From assembly GCA_965249275.1 (NCBI GenBank), contig CBDFLQ010000007.1, positions 992,001 to 1,056,000 on the forward strand: a stretch of DNA of 64,000 bases, written 5' to 3'. The number at the start of each line of letters is the position of its first letter. Within the stretch, counting starts at the first letter, position 1. The translations under genes and the position numbers were made by a program. The DNA is from Dehalococcoidia bacterium (lineage in GTDB: Bacteria > Chloroflexota > Dehalococcoidia > Plut-88900). Of this stretch, positions 20-59,285 are shown one piece after another. The notes beneath the pieces are model-generated. The model was given only the letters and a program-made list of their open reading frames with translations. It searched no databases and was not told the origin of the DNA.

Positions 20-90
20 CCTAAATTGGCACCGCTCGCCGGACAGTTAAGGCTACAGCGCAGCTTGGCCTACCGAAGAGCACTATTATC
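20..90 (+). repeat. att-like dispersed repeat copy
   Basis: CCTAAATTGGCACCGCTCGCCGGACAGTT (20-48) matches 34499-34527 at 22/29 ungapped. GTT at 46 and GG at 67-68 keep the 21-nt offset seen in other copies. Confidence 0.55.
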
Positions 91-916
91 TGGACGCATC
101 CCAGCTTCCCTTCCAATTGGGGCGCCAATCCGTCCACTTTGCGAACTCTTTTGGCTTGATGCCCGTGTCATAGATCTCGACGGTGATCGGGAGTTTGTGG
201 AAAGTTTCGGGGATCAAGCTGCTATCGCCGTCGGGGCAGACTGAGACGGATATCAGCAGGTCGATTTCCGCGTAGAATTCGATGTAGTCGCCTTTCTTCG
301 CGTCGGTCTTGCTGAAGTATCGGCGGCCCGTCAAACCATCAATGCGCATCTTCATGAAGAGGTTGATGTTGTCACCGATTACGTCTTCCTCGGTAAGGCC
401 CATAGATTCCGCGCCCTGCAAAAGATTGAGGTGACATCCGTTTAAACCGGGCACGCCGAACGTCAGCTCCCAGACCTCTGAAGCGCAATGACTCCCCGAG
501 AAATGCGCGTGCCATCCCTCGTCGGCCGGGCCTGTTTCAACTGTGTCCGCGATACAGGTGGCAATGGGTCGATACATGGGGAGGTCGGACCAAAGCCTGG
601 AATTCGTCGTGATGAATAATCCATCTGCAAGAAGGGTGCGATTCAGGCTTAGCGACTCCCGCTGAGGACAATCGGCGTTCCAGAGACAAACGTCTACAAC
701 TTGCGGGCCCTCTTCCTGGATGATTTTGAAGGTCTGACCCTTGTCCACCCTGAATCCTCGTCCATTGTTAGGTTCGATTCTTGATCTTTGCAGCAGCTTG
801 CGCTCGGAAACCCTTGTTCGGATATCGTTGTAAAACTCGAGGTCCATTCTTAATGGCTCTGGGTTGGCGTCTATTAGACTTTTCTCGGAAGACTTCATTC
901 GCGCTTCTCCTTCCAT
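86..916 (-). CDS. DUF1989 / urea carboxylase-associated family protein
   Basis: Motifs GPQVVDVCLWNA, CHLNL, NINLFM and KGDYIEFYAEIDLLISVSVCP. Confidence 0.8.
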   Translation of the reverse strand: MEGEARMKSSEKSLIDANPEPLRMDLEFYNDIRTRVSERKLLQRSRIEPNNGRGFRVDKGQTFKIIQEEGPQVVDVCLWNADCPQRESLSLNRTLLADGLFITTNSRLWSDLPMYRPIATCIADTVETGPADEGWHAHFSGSHCASEVWELTFGVPGLNGCHLNLLQGAESMGLTEEDVIGDNINLFMKMRIDGLTGRRYFSKTDAKKGDYIEFYAEIDLLISVSVCPDGDSSLIPETFHKLPITVEIYDTGIKPKEFAKWTDWRPNWKGSWDASR

Positions 917-979
917 CTGGAGTGCAAAGGCTCGCTTGACCTAGCTTAACCGAGGGTCCCTCATACGTGGGGGGCAATA

Positions 980-2449
980 TCAAGGATAGAAGAGTTTTTG
1001 GGCAGCTTTACGGAGGTCGCTTCGGAAGTCGGGGTGGGCTACGGAGATGAGCTCGGCGGCCCGCTCCCTGAGAGACTTGCCCAAGAGCCGGGCGATACCG
1101 TATTCAGTGACGATTGTGTCGGCGAAGGTGCGGGGGATGGTGACGACCCCACCCTCGGGGAGTTGAGGGACGATTCGGGATACGGTGCCTCCAGCCGCCG
1201 TGGACCTTAACAGCGTGATAGCCATTCCACCCTTTGAGAGAACGGCTCCCATATGCAGCTCGGTCTGACCTCCCGTGCCGTTCCACATTCGGGTCCCGAT
1301 GGTCTCCGAGTTGATCTGACCGGTCAGGTCGATGGATATGGCGTTATTGATGGCGTAGTAGTTGTCGTGGGCGGCCACGGTGCGGATGTTCACCACGTAC
1401 TCGGCGTCGTAGAGCTCTATGAGCGGGTTGTTGTGGGCCCACTCAATCTCCTTTGGGCTGGAGCCGTCAACGCTGGTCCCGACCAGCTTGTCCCGGTGAA
1501 TGGTCTTTCGGCTGCCGTTCAGGATGCCATCCCGCACGAGATCGAGGACGCCGGGCGTGGCCATCTCCGAGTGCCAACCCAGGTCTTTCTTGGAGTCGAA
1601 GGCGCCCAGTCGGGCCAGGTACCGGCCCGGACTTCCGACCCCGATCTGGATGGTGCTTCCATCAGGGATGATTTCCGCCACATGGTCTGCAAAGGGCTTA
1701 TCCTCTTGCGGAGGGGAGCCCCAACCGAAATCGCCGGCCAGCGCTCGCACCTCAACAAGGTTTTTGTCACAAAGGCTCGGCACCCATTGTTGGCGCTCGA
1801 TTCCCGACATGTGGGGTATGAACCCGAGGAGTTCCGACTTCACCTTCTCGTCTTCCACACCATCTATGATCGCCCTCGCTTCTTCCACGGTGATCTCGGG
1901 TGGGGTGTAGTGCACCGACCTGTCGATTTCCGACAGGTGGATGTAGTTGTCCCCGTAGGTGCGTATGAAGGTCGGATCGTGCTGGGCAATGACTTTCCTT
2001 GCGCCTTTGGCCCAACTCCGGCTGTCCCACATGCCCGCCCCGAAGCTACAGTAACCCAGTTCATTCGGAGTAGACATCCGCACAATGGCGACGTCTGCTA
2101 CGAAACGGGGTTCGCGCTTCTCACGGTACGGTTTGAACTCGTGGGAGAGGACCATGGGGTAGTAATCGATCAACTTTTTGTCGTGGGCAGGACGGGAGAA
2201 GGCCCCAAGATAGAAATGTGCGACCAGATTGAAGCTGTCTCGATATCCCCCACCCAGCCAGTCCTGGTACTCGAAGGGGCCCTGGAACATTATCCTCACG
2301 TCCGAAAGCTCGGCGCTCCTTGCGGCCAGAGCGTTAGGGATAAAGTTGTTCACCGACGGGTCAAGGTAGACGCGGCCTCCGGAGTCGACGATGCTAACTG
2401 CCTCTTCAGGCGATACGACACTTTTGTTGTAGTGGGCTATCCAGTCCAT
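980..2449 (-). CDS. acetyl-CoA hydrolase / 4-hydroxybutyrate CoA-transferase family protein
   Basis: Motifs IPDGSTIQIGVG, HSEM, AINNAISIDLTGQ, GTGGQ, IVTEYGIA and AHPDFR. Start placed at MDWIAHY (2449). Confidence 0.9.
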   Translation of the reverse strand: MDWIAHYNKSVVSPEEAVSIVDSGGRVYLDPSVNNFIPNALAARSAELSDVRIMFQGPFEYQDWLGGGYRDSFNLVAHFYLGAFSRPAHDKKLIDYYPMVLSHEFKPYREKREPRFVADVAIVRMSTPNELGYCSFGAGMWDSRSWAKGARKVIAQHDPTFIRTYGDNYIHLSEIDRSVHYTPPEITVEEARAIIDGVEDEKVKSELLGFIPHMSGIERQQWVPSLCDKNLVEVRALAGDFGWGSPPQEDKPFADHVAEIIPDGSTIQIGVGSPGRYLARLGAFDSKKDLGWHSEMATPGVLDLVRDGILNGSRKTIHRDKLVGTSVDGSSPKEIEWAHNNPLIELYDAEYVVNIRTVAAHDNYYAINNAISIDLTGQINSETIGTRMWNGTGGQTELHMGAVLSKGGMAITLLRSTAAGGTVSRIVPQLPEGGVVTIPRTFADTIVTEYGIARLLGKSLRERAAELISVAHPDFRSDLRKAAQKLFYP

Positions 2450-2562
2450 GCGGTTTCTTGAGGTGAAATCTTCCCGGAACTTCCCGACAAAAATCACCCT
2501 CCTCAGCGAGCCTACGGCCCTAGCCCTCTCCTCATCAAGAGACCTTTGCGTAACTCCGGGCA

Positions 2563-2647
2563 GGGGGTCGGGACCCCCCATTCCGCTCTTGAGACCCTTC
2601 GACTAAGCTCCCTCCAAAGGCGGATCTTCGACAGGGCGAGCGGAATG
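2563..2647. repeat. intergenic inverted repeats, possible REP-like remnant
   Basis: Hairpin GGGGGTC-GG-GACCCCC (2563-2578). CATTCCGCTC (2579-2588) pairs with GAGCGGAATG (2638-2647) and encloses two CTTCGAC motifs. Confidence 0.35.
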
Positions 2648-4103: not shown

Positions 4104-5219
4104 ATGTCGGACCTGATGATAATTTCAGCGGACTCACATGCATCGGAGCCGTCCAGCCTGTTCGAGCAGCTGCCGGAGGAGTACCGAAGGCGCGCGCCCC
4201 GGACGGAGGAGAGGAACGGAGGCATCTACTACATCCAGGACGGGCAAAGGCCGCTAAGGCAGGACATCGCAATAACACAGCTCACCGAGGAAGACAAGCG
4301 GCGGGAGTTCAGGAGCGATGAAGGGGCGGGGCAGGGGAGGGAGGCGGGCACCGATCTGCCGCTGAGGATAGCCGACCTGGAAGAGGACGGGGTGAGTGCG
4401 GAGGTCATATATCCCAATGGCATATTCAATGCCCTGGCCTCTCCGGACCCCGGGTACCAGGTGGCATTCAGCCGCCTCTACAACGATTGGTACCACGAGG
4501 TCTTCATCGACAACATGGAAAGGTTCGTACCCTCCGCGATGATTCCCATGGGAGACATTGAAGGATCCGTGAAGGAAGCAAGGCGCACGGCCAAGCTCGG
4601 ATACAGGTCGTTCTCCCTGCCGGTGCTTCTGTCCAACCTGCCATACAACAGGCCCGACTACGAAAAGTTCTGGGATGCGATGGACGACTTGAAGGTCCCC
4701 CTGAGCTTTCACGTATTTACCGGGACTGACCCGATACCGGAGGACATGGGGGAGGAGAACTCCCACGGAGCAGGCCTGATCTACATAGGACTGGGGATGA
4801 CGGTAGCGATGGCCCCGTTGACAATGCTAACGGCATCGGGGGTGCTGGAGAGGCATCCAGAATTGAATTTCGTGCTGGTTGAGTGTGGGATAGGCTGGCT
4901 GGCGTGGTACCTAAACGTGCTGGATGAACTCTACGACAAGAGGCACATGTGGCAGCAGCCCAAACTGTCTCTGAAGCCGAGCGAGTACTGGAAGAGGCAG
5001 GGCTACGTAACGTTCGGGGATGATGAGGTTGGTTTGAGGAACCGGGACATTACCGGGGTGGACTGCCTGATGTGGGGCAGCGACTATCCCCACGACGAAG
5101 GAACCTTCCCGCATTCCAGGGAAGTGATAGATCGGACATTCAGTGAATTGCCGGAGGAAGAGACGCGGAAGATAGTCGGGGAGAACGCGGCGAAGCTGTA
5201 CGGGTTTCCGATGAGTTAG
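4104..5219 (+). CDS. amidohydrolase family protein (amidohydro_2)
   Basis: ISADSH and LMWGSDYPHDEGTFP; RBS GAGGGAG upstream. Confidence 0.9.
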   Translation: MSDLMIISADSHASEPSSLFEQLPEEYRRRAPRTEERNGGIYYIQDGQRPLRQDIAITQLTEEDKRREFRSDEGAGQGREAGTDLPLRIADLEEDGVSAEVIYPNGIFNALASPDPGYQVAFSRLYNDWYHEVFIDNMERFVPSAMIPMGDIEGSVKEARRTAKLGYRSFSLPVLLSNLPYNRPDYEKFWDAMDDLKVPLSFHVFTGTDPIPEDMGEENSHGAGLIYIGLGMTVAMAPLTMLTASGVLERHPELNFVLVECGIGWLAWYLNVLDELYDKRHMWQQPKLSLKPSEYWKRQGYVTFGDDEVGLRNRDITGVDCLMWGSDYPHDEGTFPHSREVIDRTFSELPEEETRKIVGENAAKLYGFPMS

Positions 5220-5249
5220 GGGGAGGCTCACACGGCAGCCTAGAGTTCA

Positions 5250-6389
5250 ATGCCCGCCTACCTAGGACAGATAGACCCGAATGACTTCGAGCTCACGCGG
5301 GCCCCGGTACTGGATGCTTCACTACCGCCCGCGTACTTTTTCACTTCGCAGGAATTCTACGAGCGGGAAGTCGAGAGCATCTTTCTGCGAGAGTGGCTTT
5401 GTGTCGGGCGGACTGATCAACTTCAGAAGCCCGGGGATTACTTCACCATCGACTGGCCCGAGGTGCCGGTGTGCGTTGCGCTGGACCGGTCCGGCAAGAT
5501 GCACGCCTTTTCGCCCGTATGCCGTCATCGCTCAACCCTGGTAACGTCTGGGGAGGGAAATACCAGGTTCTTCCAATGCCCGTACCACGGTTGGACATAT
5601 TCGTTGTCAGGTGAGCTGGTCGGGGCTCCGGATATGGACCGGACCAAAGAATTCGACAAGTCCCTCCACTGTCTGCCATCCATCAAGGTTGCAGAATGGG
5701 AGGGTTTCCTTTTCATCAATCTAGACCCCGAGTGTGATCCGTTCGGCGAATACCTGGACAGCTTGTCTGAGTGGTTGGCTCCGTATGGCATGAAAGACAT
5801 GAAGCTGCACGACCGGCAGCAGTACGAGCTGGGCTGCAATTGGAAGATCTACGTAGACAACACCGCAGAGGAGTACCACGTTAACTATGCCCACTCTGCC
5901 TCAATAGCTCCCTACTATCCCACCCGAGCCTTTACACCTGACGACAGCCACGGGACCTGGGAGTTGTTGCTGGGGAAACAGCCGGGCGATGCACAAACGC
6001 TGTCCGGTGAGTCTGTATTGCCTGCCAATCCCAAACTTTCGGAAGAACAGGCCCGCGAGTTGGCCATCGTCATCATTTACCCCAACATGGTGCTCATCAA
6101 TAATCCGGTAGGAATGAACTATGGAATCACCCTGCCTCTCAGGCCCGACCGGTGCCGTTTGCTGATGGGCAGCTGTTTCCCGGAGTCCGCGATCAAGCAC
6201 CCGGCTTTTGAAAAGGCCGCGGTCCGACTGGAGGAGGCTCGGGAGCAGATCATGAGGGAGGACACAGCGGTATGTGAGTCCTCCCACCGGGGGTTGAAGT
6301 CGCGATTTGCGAGTCGAGGGCGATACAGCCACCGAGAGCGGCTCACGCATCGGTTGCACAACTACGTGCTCGACCGTGTGCTGGGTTGA
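5250..6389 (+). CDS. Rieske ring-hydroxylating oxygenase alpha subunit (choline monooxygenase-like)
   Basis: Rieske motif CRH...CPYHGW; mononuclear iron motif NWK...EEYHVNYAH; distal ED. Confidence 0.9.
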   Translation: MPAYLGQIDPNDFELTRAPVLDASLPPAYFFTSQEFYEREVESIFLREWLCVGRTDQLQKPGDYFTIDWPEVPVCVALDRSGKMHAFSPVCRHRSTLVTSGEGNTRFFQCPYHGWTYSLSGELVGAPDMDRTKEFDKSLHCLPSIKVAEWEGFLFINLDPECDPFGEYLDSLSEWLAPYGMKDMKLHDRQQYELGCNWKIYVDNTAEEYHVNYAHSASIAPYYPTRAFTPDDSHGTWELLLGKQPGDAQTLSGESVLPANPKLSEEQARELAIVIIYPNMVLINNPVGMNYGITLPLRPDRCRLLMGSCFPESAIKHPAFEKAAVRLEEAREQIMREDTAVCESSHRGLKSRFASRGRYSHRERLTHRLHNYVLDRVLG

Positions 6390-6452
6390 ACGAGTTGCGG
6401 CCGGCTAGGCCAACTGACCGATTCTCGTTTTCAGGAGTCTAGCAAGGCCCTC

Positions 6453-7454
6453 TTACGTCACCTTGCTCAGCACCTCTTCCCAAACCCGTTGCAGGTATTC
6501 CTTCCGGCCTAAGATATCAGGCGGGAGGTTTAGGAACGTGAAGGCCATGTAGCCTGACCGGGACTTGTCTCGATGCTCGGCGATCTGCTCTGCACACTGT
6601 TCGGCGTTGCCGACTATGGCCCACTCTTCGAGGTTGCGCAGCTTGTCCAAGCCGAGGTCTACGGCGGTGCGTTCCTGCATTCCCCAACCTCCGTAGACCG
6701 CCGCCGTTGCCTCCGCTGTTTCTTTCGCAGATCTGATGGCCGACTCACGGTCTGAGGCGAAGCTGATACAACGGTGAGCGGCATAGAACCCCTCGCCCGA
6801 GTTCTCTAGCTTATCGAGCTCCTCCCAGTATATGGTGGCGAGGGACTCGTGGTCGGCCCAGCTGACGTAGGGGCCGACCAGACAGGCGTCGGCGATGCGG
6901 GCTGCTCTGCTCGCGGCTCGGCGGCCCTGGCACGCCAGCCAGATGGGCGGGCGCGGTGAATGCACGGGCCTAATGCCCATTTGAGCAGCCGTCGCCCTGA
7001 AATAGCGCCCGCGATACGTGACCTCTTCCCCCGCCCACAGTATCTTCATCAGTTCGATGGACTCTTCGAGCCTACCCACTCTCTCTGAGCGGTTAGAGCC
7101 GACTATCTCAAGCTCCTTCTCTCGGTACCCGAGCCCCAGGCCTAGGATGAACCGCCCGTTGGAAATCTGGTCCAACGCTATGGTCTGTTCCGCGATGTCG
7201 ACGGGGTTGTGGAGGGGCATAAGGAGCACGCCGGTTATCAGTCTGATCCTGGACCCGGCGGCAGCCAGCCGGCCCAGCAGAGGCATGGGAGAGACCCACC
7301 TGGTCGGGTGGGAGACCCAATGCTCGGGGGCGTAGGCTCCCCAGAAGCCCAGCTCCTCGCCAAGGGTCACCAGCTCGGCGGTCTCTTCGATCTGGTCGTG
7401 CATAGGCCGGTTGGGGTCGGCCATGAAGTTTCTGAGGTTTAAGCCAAATTCCAT
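6453..7454 (-). CDS. LLM class flavin-dependent oxidoreductase
   Basis: PEHW, NPVDIAEQTIALDQISNGRFILGLGLGYR and PPIWLA. Confidence 0.9.
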   Translation of the reverse strand: MEFGLNLRNFMADPNRPMHDQIEETAELVTLGEELGFWGAYAPEHWVSHPTRWVSPMPLLGRLAAAGSRIRLITGVLLMPLHNPVDIAEQTIALDQISNGRFILGLGLGYREKELEIVGSNRSERVGRLEESIELMKILWAGEEVTYRGRYFRATAAQMGIRPVHSPRPPIWLACQGRRAASRAARIADACLVGPYVSWADHESLATIYWEELDKLENSGEGFYAAHRCISFASDRESAIRSAKETAEATAAVYGGWGMQERTAVDLGLDKLRNLEEWAIVGNAEQCAEQIAEHRDKSRSGYMAFTFLNLPPDILGRKEYLQRVWEEVLSKVT

Positions 7455-7547
7455 GTCGTTTCTCCCGTGCAAGAGAGCTTTGGATAACTCCTATCGTGGG
7501 ACTGTTTTGAGGATTCCGAGCATATTTCCAATCCCGAATACTCGCCC

Positions 7548-7571
7548 CTGGATTCCCGTTTTCACGGGAAT
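7548..7571. repeat. REP/dRS3-like palindrome interrupted by the IS481
   Basis: ATTCCC-GTTTTCAC-GGGAAT (7552-7571). Removing the IS and one GGAAT restores CTGGATTCCCGTTTTCACGGGAATGACG. Confidence 0.65.
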
Positions 7572-8627
7572 TGTAAGTGTTAGGTAATTCGTTGACAGAT
7601 TGGTATAAGAGGCCAACACCAATCTGGAGGCGAGAATGCGAGACAATAGCAAGGACCTCACCCTTGAACGGAACTACATTCAGAAGTGGCGGTTCCTCAT
7701 CCATGAGTATCAACTGGTCAAGGCAGGGAAGCATCCCCGTTTCCGCTTCGCCCAGGACTTCTACTCCTTCCACGGCACCAGCCGTCAGACCTTTGCCAAG
7801 TACTACAACCGATTCCTCCTCTCCCCCTCCGACAACGCCTTCCTCCCCCGTAAGCGGGGTCCCGGGTGGAAGTCCCGCCGCACCCTGCCCTACATTGAGC
7901 AGAAGGTCATCAACGAGCGCCTTAACGGTACCAACCGTTACGAGATCTATGCCATACTCAAACCCATCCTTAAACACAACACCCCTAAGCCCTCCACCAT
8001 CTACGCCATCACCAGACGCCACGGTTTCAATAGGCTCACAAAGCCGATGCAGCAGTCGAAGCGCAAGATCATCAAGACCCGGGCAGGAGAGCTGGGCCAC
8101 CTGGACAGCCACTACCTCAGCCGGGATACCATCGTGGGCACCAAGCACCGCTACTACCTGGTGGGCCTCATCGACGCCTACACCCGTCTGGCCTGGGCCG
8201 AAGTGGTCGGAGACATCAAGAGTCTCTCCGTTATGTTTGCTGTATTGAAGTCCATCAACTTCCTCAATGCGGAGTACGGCATCCAATTCGAGGCTATCCT
8301 CACCGACAACGGCCCCGAGATGGCCTCCCCAAGGAACACCGAGGGCCACCCCATGGAACGGATGCTCAAGGAACTGGGCATAAAGCACCGCTACACCCGC
8401 CCTTATAGGCCCCAGACCAACGGGAAGATAGAGCGGTTCTGGAGAACCTTGAACGAGGACCTGCTGGAGGGGACAACCTTCGAATCGGTCTCGGAACTGA
8501 AGGACGAGCTTCAGCAATACCTGATCTACTACAATACTCAGAGACCCCACCAGGCAATGGACGGAAAGACCCCTTTGCAAACCCTTAAATCTCTCTAATT
8601 CTGTCAACGAATTACCTGACATCTACA
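7572..8627 (+). mobile_element. IS481-family insertion sequence, complete
   Basis: TGT...ACA ends; 28-bp terminal inverted repeats matching 25/28 (TGTAAGTGTTAGGTAATTCGTTGACAGA vs TGTAGATGTCAGGTAATTCGTTGACAGA); 5-bp direct repeat GGAAT at 7567-7571 and 8628-8632. Confidence 0.9.
7636..8598 (+). CDS. IS481-family DDE transposase
   Basis: GELGHLD, ILTDNGPE, RPYRPQTNGKIERFWRTL and YNTQRPH. Confidence 0.93.
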   Translation: MRDNSKDLTLERNYIQKWRFLIHEYQLVKAGKHPRFRFAQDFYSFHGTSRQTFAKYYNRFLLSPSDNAFLPRKRGPGWKSRRTLPYIEQKVINERLNGTNRYEIYAILKPILKHNTPKPSTIYAITRRHGFNRLTKPMQQSKRKIIKTRAGELGHLDSHYLSRDTIVGTKHRYYLVGLIDAYTRLAWAEVVGDIKSLSVMFAVLKSINFLNAEYGIQFEAILTDNGPEMASPRNTEGHPMERMLKELGIKHRYTRPYRPQTNGKIERFWRTLNEDLLEGTTFESVSELKDELQQYLIYYNTQRPHQAMDGKTPLQTLKSL

Positions 8628-8665
8628 GGAATGACGGTTATGCAAAGTCCCTGTCTCAGCAACGT

Positions 8666-28688: not shown

Positions 28689-28778
28689 GGAGGGATGGCC
28701 GAGTGGTTTAAGGCACCGGTCTTGAAAACCGGCGTGCGCGTCAGTGTACCGTGGGTTCGAATCCCACTCCCTCCGCCA
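28689..28778 (+). tRNA. tRNA-Ser (anticodon TGA)
   Basis: GGAGGGA/TCCCTCC acceptor stem, CCGGT-CTTGAAA-ACCGG anticodon arm, long variable arm, GGTTCGAATCC and encoded CCA. Confidence 0.96.
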
Positions 28779-28938
28779 CTATAACTTTTTTGACTGTCCG
28801 CTTTTTTCTCATTTCATGCTTGCTCCATAGCTAATATAGTCTCTTGTAGTGCCCTGCCCCACCCTCCTAATCTTTTGAGTTCCCACATTAAGTGTGGTAA
28901 CATTCATGGGAACATTTGGGATTTATGGAGGCATCTGA

Positions 28939-30084
28939 ACCCTATCTGCAACTCGGGTCAAGGCCCTGAAGGATCCAGGACGCTACTCCGATGGTGGCGG
29001 CCTGCACCTTTTCATCAGCAAGGCGGTGCGGAAATCTTGGGTCCTGCACATCACTGTTGATGGACGCCGGCGGGATATAGGCTTGGGCGGATATCCGTCC
29101 GTCAGCCTGGCTCAGGCTCGTGAGAAGGCGGCGGACCATAGGGCCGCAGTTGCGGAGGGTCGAGACCCCGTGGCCGAAAAGCGCGCTCCTGCCATGCCAA
29201 CCTTTAGGGAAGCCGCCTACGCCGTCCATGAGGCCAATAAGCCCCGGTGGCGCAACCCCCGGCATGCTTCAGGCTGGATTCAGACCCTGGAGCGTCATGC
29301 TATGCCTAAGTTGGGCAACACACCGCTGGACAAGATACATCGGGGAGACGTGCTACGGGTCCTCACTCCCATTTGGATGACCCGGCCCGAGACGGCCCGA
29401 AGAGTGCGTCAGCGTATGAGGGCCGTATTCCGGTGGGCCATGGCCCACGGATTCGTGGAGTCCAACCCGGCGGGTGAAGCCATCGACGGTGCATTGCCCC
29501 CCATGCCGAAGGTGAAAGCACACTTCAGGGCACTGCCCTACCAGAACGTCGGGGCCGCAATGGAAACGGTTGCAGCATCCCATGCTTCGATGTCCGCAAA
29601 GTTCTGCTTCCGATTCCTGGTTCTCACGGCGGCCCGCTCCGGCGAAGCCAGGGGCGCTACCTGGGACGAGATCGACCTCTAGGGCCAAGAATGGCGGATT
29701 TCGTCTGAGCGTATGAAGGCTGGTGTGGAACACCGCGTACCCCTCAGCGGAGAGGCACTTGACCTGCTTGGCGAAGCATCTGTCCTGCGTGAAGACACCG
29801 GCCTGGTGTTCCCGTCGCCGCTAAAGCGGGGGACGCCCATGTCCGACATGACACTGACGAAGATGCTCCGTTCCGTCGGTCTGGCGGAACGTGCCACTGT
29901 CCACGGGTTCCGCAGCAGTTTCAAGAACTGGACACTGGAACAAACGGACACCCCGTGGGTTGTTTCAGAAGCGGCTCTTGCCCACAGCCTCGGCAATACG
30001 ACCGAGCAGGCCTACGCCAGGTCAGATCTATTCGAGCGGCGCCGCACGCTGATGCAGCTGTGGGCGGATTACCTGACCGACTGA
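28939..30084 (+). pseudogene. P4-like tyrosine integrase (arm DNA-binding plus catalytic domain), disrupted
   Basis: One reading frame: TLSATRVKALK.PGRYSDGGGL, LTAARSGE, HGFRSSF, ALAH and AYARSD. Start codon lost (TGA 28936-28938) and in-frame TAG at 29680-29682. Confidence 0.88.
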
Positions 30085-31178: not shown

Positions 31179-32447
31179 TCACTGCGGCGGCATGGCCTTG
31201 GGCGAGTCCCGGTCACCGGGGGCACGCCAGGCTCGTCCCAGCGGCCCCAGTTCATCTGTGGCGACCCTGTGGGAGACCCACAGGGGGACGGTCGTTCCTT
31301 TCGCCTGCATCTCCTCCCCTGCCACGCGCAGGAAGTGGGTCGCCGCGATCTCGTCGTCGAATACGACCAGGACGTCGGGCCGAGTGCCGTGGTCGTCGGT
31401 GGGCCTGTGAGATGAGTAATAACGAAGATAGGGGGCGAGACGCTCCGACATGGTTGTTGGGCGCACGGCGCGCCTCTCCCACTCCAGGAAGAAAGGCCAG
31501 GTTGTCTCTCCTCTTCTGAGGATACCGAAGGCGTCCGGATGGACCGAGCGGATCCCGTCGCCGTGCCTGAAGTAGCGGGAGGCCCTCTTGGGTGGGTCGA
31601 GCTGGGAGACCTGCCAGCCGACCAAGACCGCCTGGGTTGTGAGGTGGGCCAGGAAGTCGTGGACGGCGGCGGTATGCTCGATGTGCCTGAGCAGTTGGCG
31701 TGTCCTTCTGCCCGTGACGCCGGTCCACTCATAGCTGTCGCCGGTGAACAGAGGGGCGGAGCTCCACCGCCTCCTGGCCAGGCCGACGGAGGTGCGGTCT
31801 CTACGGGCCAGGAGGGCCAGTCCCCGGTCGGTAGGGGCGAGGTGTCCGCCCGCGTCGCGTGGGCGGGCCACAAGCTTGTAGAATTCCAGGGGGATGACAA
31901 GCTGGGAGGCCCTCTGGTGGGAGACCCCCATCAGCCCGGCGAGCTCCGTGAGGGCGATCCAGGGCCAGTCGGCCACCAGCTCGACGGCTCGCTTCTCGGT
32001 GGCCTTGAGCATGACCGGTAGCATGTAGTCGGAGATGTCCCAGCCCCGCCCCTGGACGGTGAAGTCCGAGGGTAGCGACGCCCGCTCCGGCGCGGCCTCT
32101 TCCGGAAGGTTATCCCTCTTCTCTATCCTGTCCAGGGCCGAGCTCAGGTCGATGTCGGCCCGGACGGCGTGGGGGCTCCACACCGCTCCGTCCGGCGCCG
32201 CCACCACCTCGCTCTCCACGGCGAGGAAGGCGGGCACGGGGAAGCCCTCCAGCATCCTGCGGGAGTGCCTGAGCCGCACGGGGTCGGGCATGAGGATGAG
32301 CACGGCTCCGGGGAGCGCCGTGCCGCGCAGCCTCCACATGCGATTGGAGAAGGCCGACCTGTCGGAGGTGTTTCCCCGCCGGACGATCCCGACGGTGCGC
32401 CCATCGGGAAGGGCTACCGCAGCGTCGAGGGACAAGGACCGGTACCA
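31179..32447 (-). pseudogene. replication-relaxation family protein, 5'-truncated and fused in frame to an IS3 OrfA fragment
   Basis: wHTH, then HTAAVHDF...VHPDAFG...FFLEWER (PD-(D/E)xK-like). The first 49 aa of ORF 31179..32594 are IS-derived. Confidence 0.6.
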
Positions 32448-32700
32448 GCGGAACCCCTCCAGCACGATACGGATCTTTTCCTCCGGAGTGTACTTGCGCC
32501 GGGTTGCTGTCCTGACTCTTCGCACGAAGGACCTGGCCTCTTCTGTGCGCTCCTCAGCCGCCACTGCCTTAGTTGTGTCTGTCTGGGACATCATTGCTCC
32601 TCTCTATGAGTAATCTACCTCATCCAGGGAGCTCTCCACACCTCAACCCTCTCGACTTTTCCTACCCCATTTCGTGTCCCATTATGGCCGACGACCTACA
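32448..32700 (-). mobile_element. IS3-family left-end remnant (inverted repeat plus 5' part of orfA)
   Basis: The minus strand begins TGTAGGTCGTCGGCCATAATGGGACAC at 32700, followed by RBS GAGGAG and ...RRKYTPEEKIRIVLEGFR. Confidence 0.7.
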
Positions 32701-34419: not shown

Positions 34420-34575
34420 TCACACATGAGCGTCCCTATAAGCCCCACCTGCCGGGACTCGAACTGGTTGAGGCATCTCTCGACTTATGAGAACACGACC
34501 TAGATTGAAACCTCCCACCGGAAAGTTCGCTGTACCGTACGCCGTGGATCGCCTAAGAGGATTCGAACTTTATTA
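34420..34575 (+). repeat. tandem att-like sites, including the best-conserved copy
   Basis: AAAGTTCG-N16-GG-N16-CGAACTTT (34522-34571). GGA(C/T)TCGAAC at 34455 and 34559, period 104. Confidence 0.7.
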
Positions 34576-35066
34576 TGACAACTGATCGCGAATTCAGCCG
34601 GATCCCAGATCCGCCACCCACGAGTACCGCAACATCTCGTTCCTATTGCTTCTCAGGTATGACCGTAGCCGAGACCATCAGGCCCACAAGGGTGGTGTGA
34701 AGAAGCCTACTGTCATTACCGGGCCGTTGTAGCCGGTAGGCGACATGCAGATCATCACCTAGCACGCTTCGTTCGCCAGGCGAAATAGGTCTACCGAATT
34801 CCGTAAGATATGGGGGTCACTGGGCGATATTTGAGATGCTACGTGACGCGGACGTAAGTGTGACAGGCCTTTGGACGGCATGGTCGCTCACACGCCGCAT
34901 GTGCCCCTCCTGTCCCCAGTGCTGGCGGAGGCGCTCCCCACTCGTCCTGCGGGCCTTGGCCGCGAGTCGGCTCAGCCCGTCAAACCCGCAGCACGCCCTC
35001 GCACCGCGCAAGCTCCGCGTCCTGGTTGTGGAAGTGCCTGGGACACTTGCCCGTGATGCACTGCGT

Positions 35067-36029: not shown

Positions 36030-36375
36030 TTGCTCCTGTCGGAACAAGAAGGACCGGGTCAACCTGCGAAGTCCACTATCCTGAGCCTGGCTATAGCTGC
36101 GGGTCAACCTACATTTCGGAAATGGCACTGGTTCCGGTCAAGTAAGGTCTACCCAGCCGAGTTGGAACCGGCAGGGTGTTACATGACTTCTGGGGTGATT
36201 CCCAAACGGAAATCTCTTACCGAAAAGTCAGCGGTATAGCCCAACATGGTTCACGAACTTTCATCACTACGCATTGCCCAGTGGACGATCCCCTTGTTTT
36301 CGAGGAAAATCCAACTATTGCTCGACCTGCAGTTCTATCGAACGATTTGTAGGGCGTACTGAACCATTGGATGTG
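36030..36375 (+). repeat. array of four degenerate att-like sites
   Basis: Central GG at 36051, 36146, 36248 and 36353 (spacing 95, 102, 105). Arms include AAAGTCAG-N16-GG, AGTTCT-N16-GG and GG-N16-GGAACC. Confidence 0.5.
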
Positions 36376-36377
36376 AC

Positions 36378-36700
36378 CACGTTCACCTGGAGTCCACAAT
36401 GGAGCCTGCCCTGCGGTTGGAGCTTGCCAGGCGCAACGGCGTGGATTTGCCGTACGCCACGTCGGATGAGATAGCGGCCACTTATGTCTACCCCGACATC
36501 ATGATGTGGTTCGACATCCGATACGAGGCTGATAAAGTGCTGAAGACGGAGCGGGACTTCTACGATCTGACCTGCGCATTCCTGTTGAAGTAAAAGTCCC
36601 AGAATGTCGTGTATACGGAGATACAGTACGACCCCCAGATGCACATGGAGCGGGGCCTGGGTAGGGGAGTATCCATGAGGGAAGCCCCAATGGAGTGGTG
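36378..36700 (+). pseudogene. adenosine/adenine deaminase N-terminal fragment
   Basis: HVHLESTMEPALRLELARRNGV...DFYDLT...*KSQNVVYTEIQYDPQMH, with an internal TAA. Confidence 0.7.
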
Positions 36701-41170: not shown

Positions 41171-41320
41171 GTTTCATCGCTCTCTAAAGATGCCGCCCAA
41201 CTGGATAAAATCGAGAGGTTTCGTGTTGAGGTTCGTCCTGGACTTGTAAGCAGGTCATGTCCTGCCACATCGGGCGAAACCCACCAAGAACCGACGGGGA
41301 AGGCCAACTGGCAGCCGAGG
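41171..41320 (+). repeat. att-like sites; the first has a right flank homologous to 59229-59285
   Basis: 41193-41249 vs 59229-59285 match 43/57 ungapped (PPNWIKSRGFVLRFVLDL* vs PPNRTKSRTFTLVFVLAL*). Second site has GG at 41302. Confidence 0.65.
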
Positions 41321-41323
41321 CAG

Positions 41324-41361
41324 TAGCCAGAGGCCCCTGCTAAAGCAGGGGCCTCTGGCTA
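41324..41361. terminator. perfect 17-bp hairpin, probable terminator
   Basis: TAGCCAGAGGCCCCTGC-TAAA-GCAGGGGCCTCTGGCTA, 16 nt downstream of the DUF5679 gene; no U-tract. Confidence 0.6.
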
Positions 41362-41377
41362 GTTGGAGACCACTGGA

Positions 41378-41521
41378 CTATGCGGTTTTACCGATCCGGA
41401 ACATCTTTGTGGAGCAGACTGGGCAGACACCCCGTGTGGCCGGGCGCCCATTCTTCATCGTAATGGCCTGTTGGCTACTCATCTCCCTCTTGGACCGGCA
41501 CTTCACACAATACGCTTCCAT
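41378..41521 (-). CDS. DUF5679-family small zinc-ribbon protein (47 aa, absent from the ORF track)
   Basis: MEAYCVKCRSKREMSSQQAITMKNGRPATRGVCPVCSTKMFRIGKTA*, with RBS GGAGG. Confidence 0.88.
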   Translation of the reverse strand: MEAYCVKCRSKREMSSQQAITMKNGRPATRGVCPVCSTKMFRIGKTA

Positions 41522-41914
41522 GGGATTCCTCCGAGCTTAAATTAGCAGGGCCTATCCTACAATATGATCATGCGTGAGTTTGCAATTATCCCCCGCAATC
41601 GCACCTCCTTTGGAGAGACGGATGCTGCATGGGTCTCCTCCTGCCAATAACTTTCGAACTACCAATCACCAAGGCCTAAAAAATGAATCCTCGGACAACT
41701 AGCTCTCCGAAGTGGAATTCAGCTCTGCTGCCCAAGAGTAGTGCAGAGTTTGGTGTTTATTGCGTAACCGGCGTGAACATATCGGCAAACTCTCGAGTGA
41801 CCGAGGTCATGGGAAGCCCCCTGGCCTGCTCCGTCACGGTGTTGAAGTCCGTGGCAAATTATTGCATGGCATCCCCTACCGCGTTTCGGTGGCAGGATGT
41901 TAGGCCGGAACACC

Positions 41915-48596: not shown

Positions 48597-48975
48597 CTTA
48601 GCATTGGCCTCCCAGCGAAAAGTGCCCAAACAGCACACTCAACCTATGGGGGCTCGAAGTGACCATTGGCGCTAATGTGGTGATAACAGATGTGGGAACG
48701 TATACTGAATACCCACCATATTAGCTTTATATAGTGTTCCTCCCATCTCCGCCGTCAGGGACTCGAACTGAACCGTAGCTACATGGAACAATTCAGTAGA
48801 GCGATGAACTAAACCTCACCGAAAGGGTTCTACCTTCTATACGTTCGGGGTCACCTGCCCGGATTCGAAACGACAAGAACGCCTCGCCATTTATGGCAAC
48901 GTTCCTAGATTGACACAACCCGGCGAAAGGTTCTCTCTGCCGTACCGTTTGGCATGCCGACGGGCACGGAAGTTC
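48597..48975 (+). repeat. array of about four att-like sites, ~100-bp period
   Basis: Centres near 48648, 48746, 48848 and 48951. 48904-48945 vs 34499-34540 match 32/42 ungapped. GTTCT-N16-GG-N16-CGAAA at 48827-48870. Confidence 0.7.
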
Positions 48976-49427
48976 AATGGGAAGCGACAGGGTGCATCTC
49001 AGGGACGGAGAGCAAGTTTCCCGCCTAAGCCCCAGTTATCAGTTTGAGCACTTCCAGCCGAGCAGGACGATATTAAGCGATACCGTAACTATGGAAGCGA
49101 ATTCGGAAGGTCAAGAAAGTCCAATGAAATGGAACAAGATCATGCCGGAAGTCGCCCAATGGCGACCTCCCGTCAACAAGGATCCTTCGTCAAAAGGTGA
49201 TTTGTCGATCACGCGGCGCCACCCCGCGCAAGAGCTGCCCGGAAGGGCCGGCTCTCGTTGTATCCGTCCGCCGGTGGGCATGGCAAGCTTGAAGGCCGAG
49301 TACCGGTGGCGTAAGATTAGCGCGAGTGTTGGCGTTGAATTGTGAGGGTTCTTTAGCCGGGGTGGCCGGCATTCGCTGTTCAATACTAGTCGATTCGGTA
49401 TTTCTTGATAAGGCTAGGAGGCTAATC

Positions 49428-49823
49428 ATGAGCACTACCGTGGAAAACAAGGCGGTGCAGGTAGTCCATGGCACTCAGGACCCAACTACCACGAGCCAAA
49501 CCCGGGGCATGATCAGAAAGCCCGGAATTGACTCCAACACCGTTGGCGCCGGCAAGATCTGGCTAGGCCACGTGACTTGTACGCCTAATACTTTGGGACC
49601 GCCACACCATCATGGGGAGGCGGAGACCGCAGCCTTCGTGTTGAGCGGCCAGATTCGGGTCTATTTCGGAGAGAATCTCGAAGAATACGTGGACGCTGGC
49701 CCAGGAGACTTTATCTTCGTGCCGGCTCATACGCCCCATATCGAAGGGAACGTAACCGACGAACCTGCTGAGGCGATGCTCTCGAGGGGGCCGGACAACA
49801 TAGTGATTAACCTGGAGGAGTGA
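49428..49823 (+). CDS. cupin domain protein
   Basis: HHHGEAETA and GPGDFIFVPAHTPHIEGN; RBS AGGAGG. Confidence 0.88.
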   Translation: MSTTVENKAVQVVHGTQDPTTTSQTRGMIRKPGIDSNTVGAGKIWLGHVTCTPNTLGPPHHHGEAETAAFVLSGQIRVYFGENLEEYVDAGPGDFIFVPAHTPHIEGNVTDEPAEAMLSRGPDNIVINLEE

Positions 49824-50357
49824 TTACCCCCAGGTTTGCTGTGGCTGGGCTTCTAGGCGAAGCCCGCTAACACCGCCTCTGATTAATGACAATCCCACCT
49901 CACCCTGGTGTCCCATGGCCCATCGAACTAAACAAAGCCGAGGGGCTCGATGCCAAGGTATAGCTGCGGACCTGCAATCGGGGGCCGACACGTAGTGAGA
50001 AAGACGGCAGATCCCGAATGTAAGGGGTCCTCCGAGGCCTATTCCTGGCATTTCTTCTGGTCCTAGCCGCCTATTCGATTGAAATACCGCCTCCTGAGGA
50101 GACCACATTATCTGTCCCGGCAATGCTGGGCCCCACTTCCACGGCGCAAGTTCCGGAGGACATCACGCCGGCATCTCGGGCCACCATAGAGTCCGCGGCC
50201 GCGACCAGCAATCCGTCACCGGGCTCCTTAAAGAGAACATCCTGTCCGATACCAACCCAGGTGCAAGCTGCGCCTCCAGAAACCCCGGTGCCAGGCTTGG
50301 CCGCCGCCTTCCCGATAACCGTGGAGCCAGGCCCCGCGGAAATATAGAGAGGGCGAT

Positions 50358-51212
50358 CTACTCACCCGTCCCGGGCGACCAGTTGTATATCTTTTCAAGC
50401 GTTCCGCCCATTAACGCGGAGCGCTCCGAATCCGAAAGCTGGTCGGCAACCCGGAATACCTCAACACCTTGCTTATAGGTCAACAGGTTAACTGCCCGGG
50501 TCCAGTCAGTACCCCACATGCATCGATCGAAGCCGAACGCATCGAACACCCTCTCCATGGGTCCCCAGATGTCCGGGTATGGAAAGGGCTCGTGGGACAG
50601 GGTACAGGCTCCGGAAATCTTGATGGCTACGTTGTCATATTCGGCCAGTGAAAGCACGTCGGCCAGATCGGCAAACGGGTCCGGCGGTGGGGGAGGCTTG
50701 AAGGGTTGGACCAGGCCCACATGATCGATCACCACCTGGGTGTTTGGATGGCGGCGAGCCAGCTCGCGCATTAAGGGTAGCTTTCCCCAACACAGGACGT
50801 TCACCGGAACGCCCACGAGAGCACCGGCAGCGAGAATGCGATTTAGACCCGGGTCGTCCGCTTCATATGGCTGGTAAGCAAGCATGATGCGGGCCCCGAC
50901 CACACCAGGCAAGCCGGTCCACTCCACCATTTCGTCAGCCGTCGCTTCGGACTGCGGATCGAATGGCTTGATCAGGCCGAAACTGCCGGGATGTTTCGCG
51001 TATACCTCGAGAGCGTAGCTGGCATCGTAGCCATACATGGAGAACGGCGAAACCAACAAGGCCCCGTCGACGCCGACCGAGTCCATCGCCGCCACCATAT
51101 CGTCGCCAGTCACCTCATCGGGGCCCTCCAAGAATCCACTCCAGGGGCGCTCAGGGCGGTTACGCTCGTACGCATGGACCTGCGAGTCAATTGTGGGAGT
51201 GCGAGTCGTCAT
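50358..51212 (-). CDS. amidohydrolase (lactonase-like)
   Basis: IDSQVHAY, VIDHVG, NVAIKISG and RCMWGTDW. Confidence 0.88.
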   Translation of the reverse strand: MTTRTPTIDSQVHAYERNRPERPWSGFLEGPDEVTGDDMVAAMDSVGVDGALLVSPFSMYGYDASYALEVYAKHPGSFGLIKPFDPQSEATADEMVEWTGLPGVVGARIMLAYQPYEADDPGLNRILAAGALVGVPVNVLCWGKLPLMRELARRHPNTQVVIDHVGLVQPFKPPPPPDPFADLADVLSLAEYDNVAIKISGACTLSHEPFPYPDIWGPMERVFDAFGFDRCMWGTDWTRAVNLLTYKQGVEVFRVADQLSDSERSALMGGTLEKIYNWSPGTGE

Positions 51213-51441
51213 CGCCTTCCTCCTTTTCGCTCATGGATTTCGGGTGGTTGCGTGAGGCTCTGCTCCAGAGTGCCCCAGAGCTGTAAACCGGGACATGTCA
51301 GACCGATCTTCTTCATTGCGACTGCCCGGCGAGACATTCGCCGCACGGTACGTGTAGCCCCACCAACGCTGCCGGTAGATAGCTCCGTCTTCGAGATGTG
51401 GCTGGGCAGCCTGTAAAGCCACCGAGTCCCAGGGCCCTTTC

Positions 51442-52038
51442 TCATTCCCCCTCTTCCCGCTCTCGCGGTTCTATGTCGGCACGGATTCCCTCACTGATGC
51501 GGTCCGTCTCAGCCTGAAGACCCTCAATACGCAGGAGAGCGTCCGCCATCGGAAGCTTCCGCACCCCCTCCAATCCCTCACAGAGGGTATCGAACCTGTG
51601 CCACTCCGTCTCCTCAAACCCCTCCGGTGCAAGCTCACCCCGCGACATGACCCACGAGCACATAGCGAAGACGCCTCTCTCCGTATCAAGCGCCTCGTCA
51701 CAGTTGTCCTCCTCAACGCACTCTTTGAAGTCGTCCAGCCGGGCGTCGAAGCGTCGTGCGAGCGTCTCCGAGTCGGCGATCCAGTCCTCGACGTCGGGAA
51801 ACAGACGGTCGCACCCGGTCAGCGACAGTGCGACGAGAGCAGCGACCCCGATGAGCAGAACGGTCAAAATCAATCCAGCACTCGCTGGATCGTCGCGTCG
51901 GTCTCCCCCATCATCACGATTGAGCCCGCGGCATCGTCTTCGTTTACCATGTGGGTCCTTCTTTTCCGGGCGGTGCATAACCCAGGTGACCACCGCTAAA
52001 TTTTGATGCCGATCGGGGGTAATCTTGTAAGACTCCAT
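51442..52038 (-). CDS. hypothetical lipoprotein (start uncertain)
   Basis: Hydrophobic stretch with lipobox LSLTGC, followed by an acidic helical domain. Confidence 0.5.
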   Translation of the reverse strand: MESYKITPDRHQNLAVVTWVMHRPEKKDPHGKRRRCRGLNRDDGGDRRDDPASAGLILTVLLIGVAALVALSLTGCDRLFPDVEDWIADSETLARRFDARLDDFKECVEEDNCDEALDTERGVFAMCSWVMSRGELAPEGFEETEWHRFDTLCEGLEGVRKLPMADALLRIEGLQAETDRISEGIRADIEPREREEGE

Positions 52039-52156
52039 CTATAGGAGCATCAGAATTCTGTTAAATTATCGCCCCAACAGTACGCGGGAATCTGGCCCCT
52101 CGTCAATCCGATCCAGGATCTGTATTGGGAGTCCCTGCGAAACGAAGGATCAATTC

Positions 52157-52200
52157 AAAGTTCGCAGTACCGTACACCTAGCCCCTCCCGTCCAGTTGCC
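52157..52200 (+). repeat. att-like left half-site
   Basis: AAAGTTCGCAGTACCGTAC matches 34522-34540 at 18/19. Confidence 0.65.
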
Positions 52201-57737: not shown

Positions 57738-58071
57738 GGGCACAAAGAAGCACACAGACACGCAAGCCGCCAAAATAAAGATTGCCTTATAGGCTGCACA
57801 TATCGCCACCGCATCAATGCCACCGGCCCACTTCCGCCACTTCATCCCCATGACCTGCCACAGCCTCACCTCATCAACACTCAACTGCCCTGATTCTACC
57901 GGCTCTTAAACTAAGGCTGTAGTACTAGTGATGCAGCCGCACTAACACCGATTTGGCTCTTTCGGTCTCAAATTCGGCATAGTTTCGTTAGTATTTGAGA
58001 CGTTGGTCCTGGCCGGACGTTGCGATTTCAGGACCATCCAACACCACAAGCGACCACCCGGGGCTCTAGTG

Positions 58072-58986
58072 TTACGCTGAGAGTGCTGCGGAGACGCCCT
58101 CTATTTTCCCCGGCCCCGATGTAGTGAGCTCACCGACCGCTTTGACTATGTTCGGGTGCTGCAATCCAGACACGAGGAAGGTCCACCGGCACGCCCGCTG
58201 CGTATTCGTAGTGATCTCCTCCTTCTCGGCAGCCGTGAACGTCCGTCCGGTCACCCTCTCAAGAGCTTCTATGTTCAGCCCAATCTGCTGTGCCAGCAGC
58301 CCGTCGATCGCCCCACCAAGCTCCAGAACCTCATCGATTGCACTCTCCCGCTCTTCAAGGGTCAGGAGCTCGGCTACTTCGCCGATCAGCAACGTGTCCA
58401 GCTTGGCGTGCTGCGCCTCTTCTATCCAATGAAACCTCAAGAGATCCCGGAACAGCCCATCGAGGTCCGAGTCGTCGCGCACATGCTCTATGTAGTGGAG
58501 CTGGGTGAACCATTCGATAATCGCGGTCAGGAGCATGACGGCCAGCTTCGACTTGCTCCGAACTACTTTCGCCACGTCTTCCCGGCCAGGGATTAAGCCG
58601 CACTCACTGCCGAAACCCCGGCCGAAGAGTTCAACCGATCTCCGAAACAGCTCCTGATGCTTGAGTTCTTCCTCAGCGAACCGCAACAACGAGCGGGCTT
58701 TGACTTCATCCCCATAGACATCATTCATAGCCTCTTCCATGACGGCGGGGATGATGAACTCCTCCACGAACGCGAAGATGTGGCAGTAGGCGTTGCCCAT
58801 AATCTGATTCAGCTGAAGCCTCTCGTTGTCGTTCAAACATCCGATCTCGTCTACACCGGTCAGCCTGTTGGGCAGAAAGCGTTTCGAGAAGTCGAAATTC
58901 TTGTCGGCCAGGACATCGTCTTCCAACCAGGAGACCCTCTTTGAGATGTCCAGACACTCTTGGTACGTGTAGTTGTGTGAAAGCAC
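58072..58986 (-). CDS. ferritin-like diiron oxygenase (AurF-like)
   Basis: FVEE, EELKH, IEW and EEAQH (two ExxH motifs); RBS GGAGGAG. Confidence 0.75.
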   Translation of the reverse strand: MLSHNYTYQECLDISKRVSWLEDDVLADKNFDFSKRFLPNRLTGVDEIGCLNDNERLQLNQIMGNAYCHIFAFVEEFIIPAVMEEAMNDVYGDEVKARSLLRFAEEELKHQELFRRSVELFGRGFGSECGLIPGREDVAKVVRSKSKLAVMLLTAIIEWFTQLHYIEHVRDDSDLDGLFRDLLRFHWIEEAQHAKLDTLLIGEVAELLTLEERESAIDEVLELGGAIDGLLAQQIGLNIEALERVTGRTFTAAEKEEITTNTQRACRWTFLVSGLQHPNIVKAVGELTTSGPGKIEGVSAALSA

Positions 58987-59113
58987 GGGCTACTCCTCCT
59001 TGTACTAGGCCTTTTGCTAGGATCCTCCATTCTCGGCTGACCGAATCCCACACCAACCCATTATATAGGTGACGGCCATAGGTCTTTAACTCACGAATGC
59101 GGGCAAACTTTCT

Positions 59114-59285
59114 AAAAGGCTCGCAGATCCATCCGGGAGCGGTCTGAACTGGGTGATCGATGGGCACATCCCGTCGCCCGAGGTGACAAAATCACCGAAG
59201 TAGATTCAACTCCAGAGGGCAGCTTGGGCCACCAAACCGGACAAAATCAAGAACTTTCACTTTGGTATTCGTCCTGGCCTTGTAA
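59114..59285 (+). repeat. att-like sites (long-arm type)
   Basis: GG(59226)-N22-AGAACTTT; flank homologous to 41193-41249; weaker site centred near 59141. Confidence 0.6.

Follow-up and report, generated by a model that had tools for sequence, protein, structure and literature searches.

The stretch analysed here (the window; 64 kb, C7:992001-1056000) belongs to G000, a Dehalococcoidia genome of 2.9 Mb in 7 contigs that is 87% complete. It carries a nuo-serS core and accessory zones, with genes that include Amidohydro_2, luciferase-like monooxygenase, CoA-transferase III and enoyl-CoA hydratase. Intergenic gaps of the accessory zones share a degenerate, near-palindromic motif of ~50 bp, of which a first-pass annotation had listed nine clear and 13 weak copies, read as attachment (att) sites of an integron-like cassette system driven by serine recombinases. 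We compared the window with related genomes and found that the supported copies form a sequence family, share the geometry of junctions between recombinase genes and tRNA genes, adjoin large serine recombinase (LSR) genes in congeners, and coincide with the ends of gene blocks that are reordered between genomes. From these sequence comparisons, the sites are probably relic attL/attR-type junctions of integrative elements that were moved by LSRs and targeted tRNA 3′ ends or tRNA-like landing sequences.

Materials and methods

G000 was compared with eight congeners and 29 genomes of other families (genomes are labelled G0xx and sampled loci Lxxx). Profile A of the repeated unit was seeded with window positions 34420-34600 and iterated over the whole of G000 with nhmmer, whereas profile B was built from 22 distinct unit copies, all from genomes other than G000. 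An LSR-end profile was built from 14 intact LSR gene 3′ ends, none from G000, and 21 LSR 3′ ends (L054 and 20 more) were sampled. To obtain shared blocks at ≥85% identity, the eight congeners were searched by BLAST with window positions 26-46 kb and 44-64 kb; block ends from BLAST are approximate, with a resolution of a few nt. Metagenome contigs from four runs (X1, X4, X6, and X9) are short, and the parts they leave uncovered carry no information.

Results

The iterated search with profile A converged on 12 copies in G000 of a unit of ~122 columns. With profile B, the top match in the window was 34448-34568 (E 2e-27), followed by 48854-48960 (E 6.5e-21), 15-79 (E 7e-8), and 36155-36255 (E 8e-6), with weaker matches at 52157-52184 (E 0.01) and 51294-51365 (E 0.18). 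The LSR-end profile matched best at 48817-48871(+) (E 1.6e-4) and 59255-59221(-) (E 3.5e-4), then at 36153-36125(-) (E 0.019), 34525-34568(+) (E 0.036), and 48929-48962(+) (E 0.064); all five of these top matches in the 64-kb window coincide with previously listed sites. Positions 41192-41255 are a 75% copy of 59228-59291 (nhmmer E 2e-6). Eight of the nine clear sites are thereby retained (67, 34546, 36248, 41192, 48848, 48951, 59226 and, marginally, 52181), and 36353, with no family match, is not. About two of the 13 weak sites survive as parts of adjoining units (36146 and 48746); the other eleven (3971, 4070, 34170, 34812, 36051, 41302, 41631, 41752, 41860, 48648, and 59141) have no profile match with E <1. 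The 32/42 identity counted by hand was reproduced by repeat search (48904-48945 versus 34499-34540, 76%), and the nuo-serS core is indeed free of the motif, as neither the unit profiles nor the LSR-end profile gave a match with E <1 between 9 and 28.6 kb. The six unit matches all lie on the + strand, as had been stated for every copy, whereas 41192 and 59226 are inverted when judged by the direction of the recombinase-gene remnant. Tandem Repeats Finder detected no array at the sites.

LSR attachment sites are imperfect inverted repeats of 40-50 bp around a central 2-bp crossover. In congeners, the two arms of the motif could be traced to different sources, which the first-pass annotation had missed: one arm consists of the last recombinase codons, the other of a tRNA T-loop and 3′ end. 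Resolvase searches gave 63 hits in total; six of the eight congeners carry 2 to 38 LSR genes, whereas G004, G007, and G000 have none, and the congener proteins combine Resolvase, Recombinase, and Zn_ribbon_recom domains. Among the 21 sampled LSR 3′ ends, eight abut a convergent bona fide tRNA gene (Asp, Ile twice, Glu-ttc twice, Glu-ctc, Ala-ggc, and Gln-ttg). In 8/8 of these junctions, the tRNA 3′ end begins exactly 16 nt past GTT(C/A) (GTGC once) and the T-loop TCGAAC comes 18 nt on (TG + 16 nt). The CCA end forms the centre, flanked by the last LSR codons on one side and by the reverse complement of the tRNA acceptor, T stem, and T-loop on the other. The geometry of the motif, GTTC-N16-NN-N16-TCGAAC, equals that of this junction between LSR gene end and tRNA end, exactly at 34525-34568 and in degenerate form at the other sites.

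The proposed link between the motif and a recombinase, for which the window offered no gene, is physical in the congeners, where cognate-type LSR genes adjoin the motif at L017, L054, L065, and L071. At L054 (G008), the LSR open reading frame (ORF) ends inside an intact convergent tRNA-Asp, and at L017 (G003) the LSR ORF (..VLDFVQSSPPT*) has its stop codon within the T-loop-like box of a unit. Other LSR 3′ ends lead into T-loop-like boxes and then units (L017, and tandem units at L071 and L065) or overlap a convergent LSR gene. The reverse test agreed, with the G000 unit profile matching LSR/tRNA-Glu junctions in L066 (E 5e-6) and L061 (E 2e-5). Elsewhere in G000, the LSR-end profile detected remnants next to tRNA-Arg(ccg), with E 5e-14, and next to tRNA-Ala(cgc), with E 3e-8. 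The earlier distinction between N16 and N22 arms as B-type and P-type half-sites is not supported: the N22 cases are inverted LSR-end remnants, in which the arm again lies 16 nt from the centre once the centre is set 6 nt further along. Since 41192 and 59226 are such inverted remnants, the N22 arm reflects a misplaced centre and not a P-type half-site.

Two further observations concern the LSR genes themselves. Convergent LSR gene pairs (L050, G006:C4:729000-741000, 5071-8288; also in G001, G003, and G008) have N-terminal domains that start a constant ~2648 bp apart, and the genes of a pair overlap at their 3′ ends by some hundred nt, each thereby reading through the C-terminal region of its partner. 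Homologues of the Replic_Relax-family gene of the window lie a few kb from LSR genes in sister genomes.

Blocks shared with the congeners are 85-97% identical (BLAST), and several end at the sites. Three matches, one each from G002, G003, and G005, start at 34552; a segment of ~580 bp, from 41198 to 41777-41780, has three further copies in G002 and G005; and other block ends lie at 48815, 49000, 51375, 52188, 59150-59165, 59229, and 59235. In G005, the point equivalent to 52188 continues with an inverted LSR-end remnant. The island part of the window (from 28.8 kb on, see below) contains 27 clustered block ends, which lie ≤15 nt from four and ≤35 nt from six of its eight clear sites (binomial P 2.5e-5 and 5e-7; against random intergenic positions, P 5e-4 and 4.5e-5, respectively). 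For the weak sites in the island, the count within 35 nt of a boundary is 3/11 (34812, 41752, and 59141; P 0.017). The placement of sites at module junctions, first noted within the window alone, is supported by the comparison with sister genomes. The ends within 15 nt of site centres (34552, 41198, 52188, and 59229/59235) are consistent with a crossover at the motif centre, the crossover dinucleotide itself lying beyond the resolution of block ends.

As the cassette proposal had anticipated, the modules are shuffled between genomes. G005 carries 49000-52188, then 34552-34784, then 41198-41777, and block 48815-51375 is inverted in G002, whose island at the same tRNA-Ser spans ~108 kb with extra DNA between shared blocks. 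The modules measure 0.6-7 kb, contain several genes, and occur in both orientations. Two loci of G003 share 619 nt at 100% identity, ending at ..TATAAGGCCCACC; past this break, one locus has an LSR gene end and the other a box followed by the homologue of window position 34552 onward. Where the window has box-unit-box, a single box is present in G003 and in one metagenome contig (run X9, depth 5). The short contigs of X1, X4, X6, and X9 showed no joints at the sites, except one low-depth variant without the unit 34441-34562. Alternative modules also occur between the same flanks, since in G003 and G005 nothing separates window position 38486 from the homologue of C7:1068403.

These data also bear on whether most of the listed sites are chance matches to a loosely defined, nearly palindromic pattern in intergenic DNA of high GC content. 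The supposed enrichment over shuffled DNA failed for strict patterns: AAGTTC-N30-50-GAACTT occurs once in the window (34523-34570), a count reached in 6 of 100 shuffles, and GTTC-N33-35-TCGAAC likewise once (34525-34568), reached in 24 of 100. About half of the 22 sites (36353 and the eleven weak ones) have no profile support, and neither a repeat nor a block boundary was found at 3971 and 4070. For the core sites, however, E values down to 2e-27 with a profile from other genomes, together with the boundary statistics, exclude chance. As an account of most of the list, chance is very improbable; it is refuted for the eight supported clear sites and stands for the unsupported half.

The first-pass annotation also overlooked the enclosing island. 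A 23-nt direct repeat (AATCCCACTCCCTCCGCCACTAT) covers the last 19 nt of tRNA-Ser(tga) plus 4 nt downstream (28760-28782) and recurs 44 kb to the right (C7:1064744-1064766). The tRNA, the adjacent P4-like tyrosine integrase gene, interrupted by an in-frame TAG (Table 1), and the far repeat mark out a 44-kb island with a tyrosine-integrase frame, which takes in the accessory zone from 28.8 kb onward and continues past the window end. An intact integrase paralogue (85% identical) lies beside tRNA-Ser(cga) at C7:930472-931665; it has Arm-DNA-bind_3, Phage_int_M, and Phage_integrase domains and an adjoining AlpA gene. In-frame stops, one or two per gene, also occur in many copies of this integrase family in congeners. 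G000 has five PF00589 hits: two are the P4-like genes beside tRNA-Ser genes, and three lie elsewhere (C7:586 kb, C7:652 kb, and C4), none beside the sites. No congener had tRNA-Ser joined to the right flank of the island (an empty site), which we attribute to the right flank being itself mosaic.

The short units make up the inner ~100 nt of an element of ~320 nt, which opens with a tRNA-Ser 3′ end in reverse complement. Fifteen long copies occur in six genomes (G000 3, G002 4, G003 3, G005 2, G008 2, and G010 1), and searches found none in G001, G004, G006, G007, or the 29 genomes of other families. Between tRNA-Ser(cga) and C7:908 kb, 17/18 positions match. A 1.2-kb interruption of the G005 element was considered as a cognate gene and rejected, as it is an IS5-type transposase. 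The element was hit independently by IS5-family transposases, at one position in G000 (C7:908372-909367; L010 8372-9367) and at another in G005 (L014 1930-2883).

This frame raises the alternative that P4-like tyrosine integrase islands use the units as arm or accessory sites, that the internal copies are ends of older, stacked tRNA-Ser islands, and that a tyrosine integrase made the junctions. The embedding of one unit in the ~320-nt element fits such a scheme, as do integrase-element pairs oriented as expected, two of them in G000 and others in G002, G003, and G005, and the tandem island junctions at G002:153-155 kb and G003:377 kb, where an integrase remnant directly follows the element. 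However, the window contains no second tRNA-Ser 3′ fragment (0 further matches at ≤3 mismatches). The first 50 positions of the element match tRNA-Ser genes only, and the boxes at internal junctions are unlike tRNA-Ser. Some copies are found beyond the island limits (window 15-79; C7:1066776 and 1076482), and in congeners the units adjoin LSR gene ends directly. We therefore judge a tyrosine integrase unlikely as the maker of the internal junctions.

The tRNA-like appearance of the units suggests a different alternative, namely that they are small structured tRNA-like RNA genes or pseudogenes, or a self-spreading repeat of the REP (repetitive extragenic palindromic) or MITE (miniature inverted-repeat transposable element) type, whose position at block edges is incidental. 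An acceptor-like stretch comes after a T-loop-like box, GTTCGA(A/G)TC, a hairpin of 9-10 bp forms at the box in two long copies with differences that are G-U compatible on one strand, and the family is multi-copy and patchy (4/8 congeners). A pseudo-tRNA has also been reported within the island integration modules of Dehalococcoides (PMC3146451). Yet RNAalifold on 20 units returned 0 conserved pairs, and the copies showed neither terminal inverted repeats nor target duplications. Nor did ARAGORN identify a tRNA at any copy (in the window it found tRNA-Ser(tga) only), and no Rfam family matched the copies at E up to 10. With no cloverleaf by ARAGORN and no match to the Rfam tRNA model at that threshold, a tRNA gene or pseudogene at the sites was rejected. 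We hold this RNA or repeat alternative as a whole to be quite improbable.

The features of the window are compiled in Table 1. Several other repeats and duplications were recorded alongside them. The 390-bp segment that contains a unit copy aligns from window 36162-36517 to C7:1066787-1067176 of G000 at 83% identity. Recent duplicates of 57843-59165 and 60048-62122 lie at C5:169548-170872 (94%) and C5:583464-585539 (98%), respectively, the latter carrying two oligopeptide-type ABC ATPase genes. An IS3-family insertion sequence (rve domains) at 7567-8635 recurs in G000 in at least 11 further copies (90-100% identity) and in G002 in >20. A repeat of 35-230 nt at 2494-2720, with ~50 genome copies at 75-97% identity, spans the 5′ end and upstream region of an acetyl-CoA hydrolase/transferase-like gene (980-2581, -) and is possibly a shared leader or signal region. 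A small ORF at 41397-41510 (-) (..MKNGRPATRGVCPVCSTKMFRIGKTA) adjoins a strong terminator-like hairpin at 41318-41362 and has a 79% DNA paralogue at C7:83425-83501.

Table 1. Junction sites and associated genes in the window, with the evidence for each.
Feature	Position	Strand	Evidence
Partial copy of ~105-nt unit, outside the tRNA-Ser island	15..79	+	Profile B, E 7e-8; member of repeat family D1
tRNA-Ser(tga)	28689..28778	+	ARAGORN, Rfam
P4-like tyrosine integrase gene with in-frame TAG at 29680-29682 (..WDEIDL*GQEWRI..)	28942..30084	+	PF00589; translation
Replic_Relax-family gene	31179..32594	-	Pfam, E 6e-8
Best copy: box A (34447-34464), unit, and exact GTTC-N16-GG-N16-TCGAAC (34525-34568)	34447..34571	+	E 2e-27; block boundary 34552
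Unit copy inside duplicated 390-bp segment	36155..36255	+	Profile B, E 8e-6
Diverged remnant resembling last LSR codons (..KPLDFIQLGG)	41198..41260	-	Frame translation; 75% copy of 59228-59291
Two tandem units, boxes at 48757-48771 and 48853-48870	48733..48962	+	Profile B and LSR-end profile; boundaries 48815 and 49000
Marginal unit copy at right end of module 48815-51375	51294..51375	+	E 0.18; D1 copy 51310-51351; boundary 51375
Marginal LSR-end-like arm (AAAGTTCGCAGTACCGTAC) at right end of module 49000-52188	52157..52188	+	E 0.01; boundary 52188
Last-codon remnant of LSR gene (..KVKVLDFVRFGGP; ..KVLDFVRFGGP in translation)	59221..59291	-	LSR-end profile, E 3.5e-4; boundaries 59229 and 59235

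Discussion

The earlier suggestion that the sites are att-type junctions of LSRs has gained from the uniform geometry of the eight tRNA junctions, the matches to the LSR-end profile, and the block boundaries at the sites, and it can now be framed as a sequence of events. In intact elements, represented in sister genomes, the LSR gene occupies the element edge and faces outward. One arm (GTTC + 16 nt) comes from the last codons of this gene, ..(S/K)-V-(L/M)-x-x-(V/I)-x-x-G.., the CCA end of the tRNA, in reverse complement, provides the centre, and the second arm consists of the acceptor and T stem (16 nt) with the T-loop (TCGAAC). A series of insertions, with the recombinase genes lost afterwards, would then have left co-located scars between catabolic gene blocks, and recombination at these scars, or independent insertion into them, could have generated the strain-specific block orders. 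The sites from 28.8 kb on lie within the larger tRNA-Ser(tga) island with its broken tyrosine integrase and 23-nt repeat.

Several findings weigh against attributing the junctions to LSRs. G000 itself returned 0 Resolvase (PF00239) hits from a genome that is 87% complete, and the window has none either. A tblastn search with three LSR proteins gave no significant remnant in the window, the likeness being limited to ~11-15 codons, and the LSR-end profile missed the remnant at 41198. The stretch of the unit with the highest conservation (GAACTTTTCGGTGGG..TCAATCTAGG) does not correspond to LSR coding sequence and contains an in-frame stop, so the unit must be more than a decayed gene end, with ~55 nt per unit left over; the origin of the tandem 105-nt units is not accounted for. 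The strict pattern is not enriched over shuffles. Of the 27 boundary clusters, only seven come within 35 nt of any clear site, and block boundaries are commoner in intergenic DNA generally. The element at tRNA-Asp in G008 could not be delimited, because the G000 flank downstream of tRNA-Asp could not be matched to any sequence up to 44 kb from the G008 LSR; either the element exceeds 44 kb or the flank is not conserved. Likewise, the module with the box next to the sharp break in G003 is present in one copy only in that genome, and no whole element could be delimited there.

A broader and more tentative proposal, which we consider possible but doubtful, is that one LSR lineage recognises what all tRNA 3′ ends have in common (T-loop and CCA) and inserts at many tRNA genes as well as at tRNA-like landing pads borne by the elements themselves. 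Recognition of a universal tRNA end would allow an LSR to use many tRNA genes, and if each insertion recreated the pad, accretion would be self-propagating. LSRs supplied in trans could later reorder blocks without a recombinase, and the process as a whole might act as an engine of catabolic paralogue expansion in this deep-ocean-type Chloroflexi lineage. Apart from this proposal, LSR junctions like those inferred for the window would offer a concrete route for adding and reshuffling catabolic gene blocks in a lineage known for large paralogue families; our literature search found no paper combining 'SAR202' and 'serine recombinase'. A survey of Mycobacterium prophages and phage-inducible chromosomal islands (PICIs) associates tRNA-overlapping attB sites and tRNA-integrated PICIs with tyrosine integrases and places serine-integrase PICIs elsewhere (PMC10654092). 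Judging from this survey, an LSR family with defined tRNA-end sites would be unusual. It could supply new integrases with predictable, ubiquitous targets.

The integron analogy drawn at first is not supported. Integrons rely on the tyrosine recombinase IntI and on folded single-stranded attC sites, and their cassettes are mostly single promoterless ORFs in one orientation. The likeness lies in arrays of co-located recombination sites between gene cassettes that differ among strains. The analogy fails in that neither an IntI-type integrase nor attI was found and the modules are multi-gene and lie in both orientations; attC-like folding is not supported either, as RNAalifold gave no consensus fold in 20 units (the attC R′/R″ consensus was not scanned). 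Islands of P4-like tyrosine integrases at tRNA genes match the outer frame, with an integrase at tRNA-Ser, a 23-nt repeat 44 kb away, and AlpA by way of the paralogue, but not the internal motif. In the staphylococcal cassette chromosome (SCC), the target is a conserved protein-coding gene (rlmH), at whose 3′ end two serine recombinases, CcrAB, insert cassettes. SCC elements also form composite and tandem arrays, including elements without recombinase genes. Unlike the sites described here, SCC involves no tRNA mimicry.

The closest described system is that of the ssrA islands of Dehalococcoides, likened here by arrangement and not by LSR sequence homology. The study that described them (McMurdie et al. 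2011; PMC3146451) places the LSR DsiB, of ~540 aa, at the island edge, with the dsiB 3′ end overlapping attL and the ssrA 3′ end on the complementary strand and insertion in or beside the T-loop region. According to the same study, the islands are tandem and bounded by a 20-bp exact repeat of the 3′ end of the transfer-messenger RNA (tmRNA) gene, many lack an integration module ('accretion'), and their cargo is strain-specific and catabolic. The integration module itself comprises DsiA, RecF-like, ParB, and Mom genes in addition to the pseudo-tRNA, and the closest dsiB homologue outside Dehalococcoides was on a deep-ocean metagenomic fosmid (PMC3146451). As in the DsiB islands, the LSR gene and its target RNA gene in congeners lie on opposite strands with overlapping 3′ ends (tRNA-Asp at L054 and seven further tRNA cases). 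The two systems differ in that the targets here are many tRNAs (Asp, Ile, Glu with two anticodons, Ala, and Gln, with remnants at Arg and Ala) and tRNA-like boxes, and not ssrA alone; the G000 tmRNA gene (C7:74608-74960) has no match to the LSR-end profile. They differ further in that degenerate ~105-nt units replace the 20-bp exact repeat, the sites are nested in a tyrosine-integrase island, and G000 has lost its recombinases. The junctions described here would thus extend the mechanism of the Dehalococcoides ssrA islands from one tmRNA gene to many tRNA genes.

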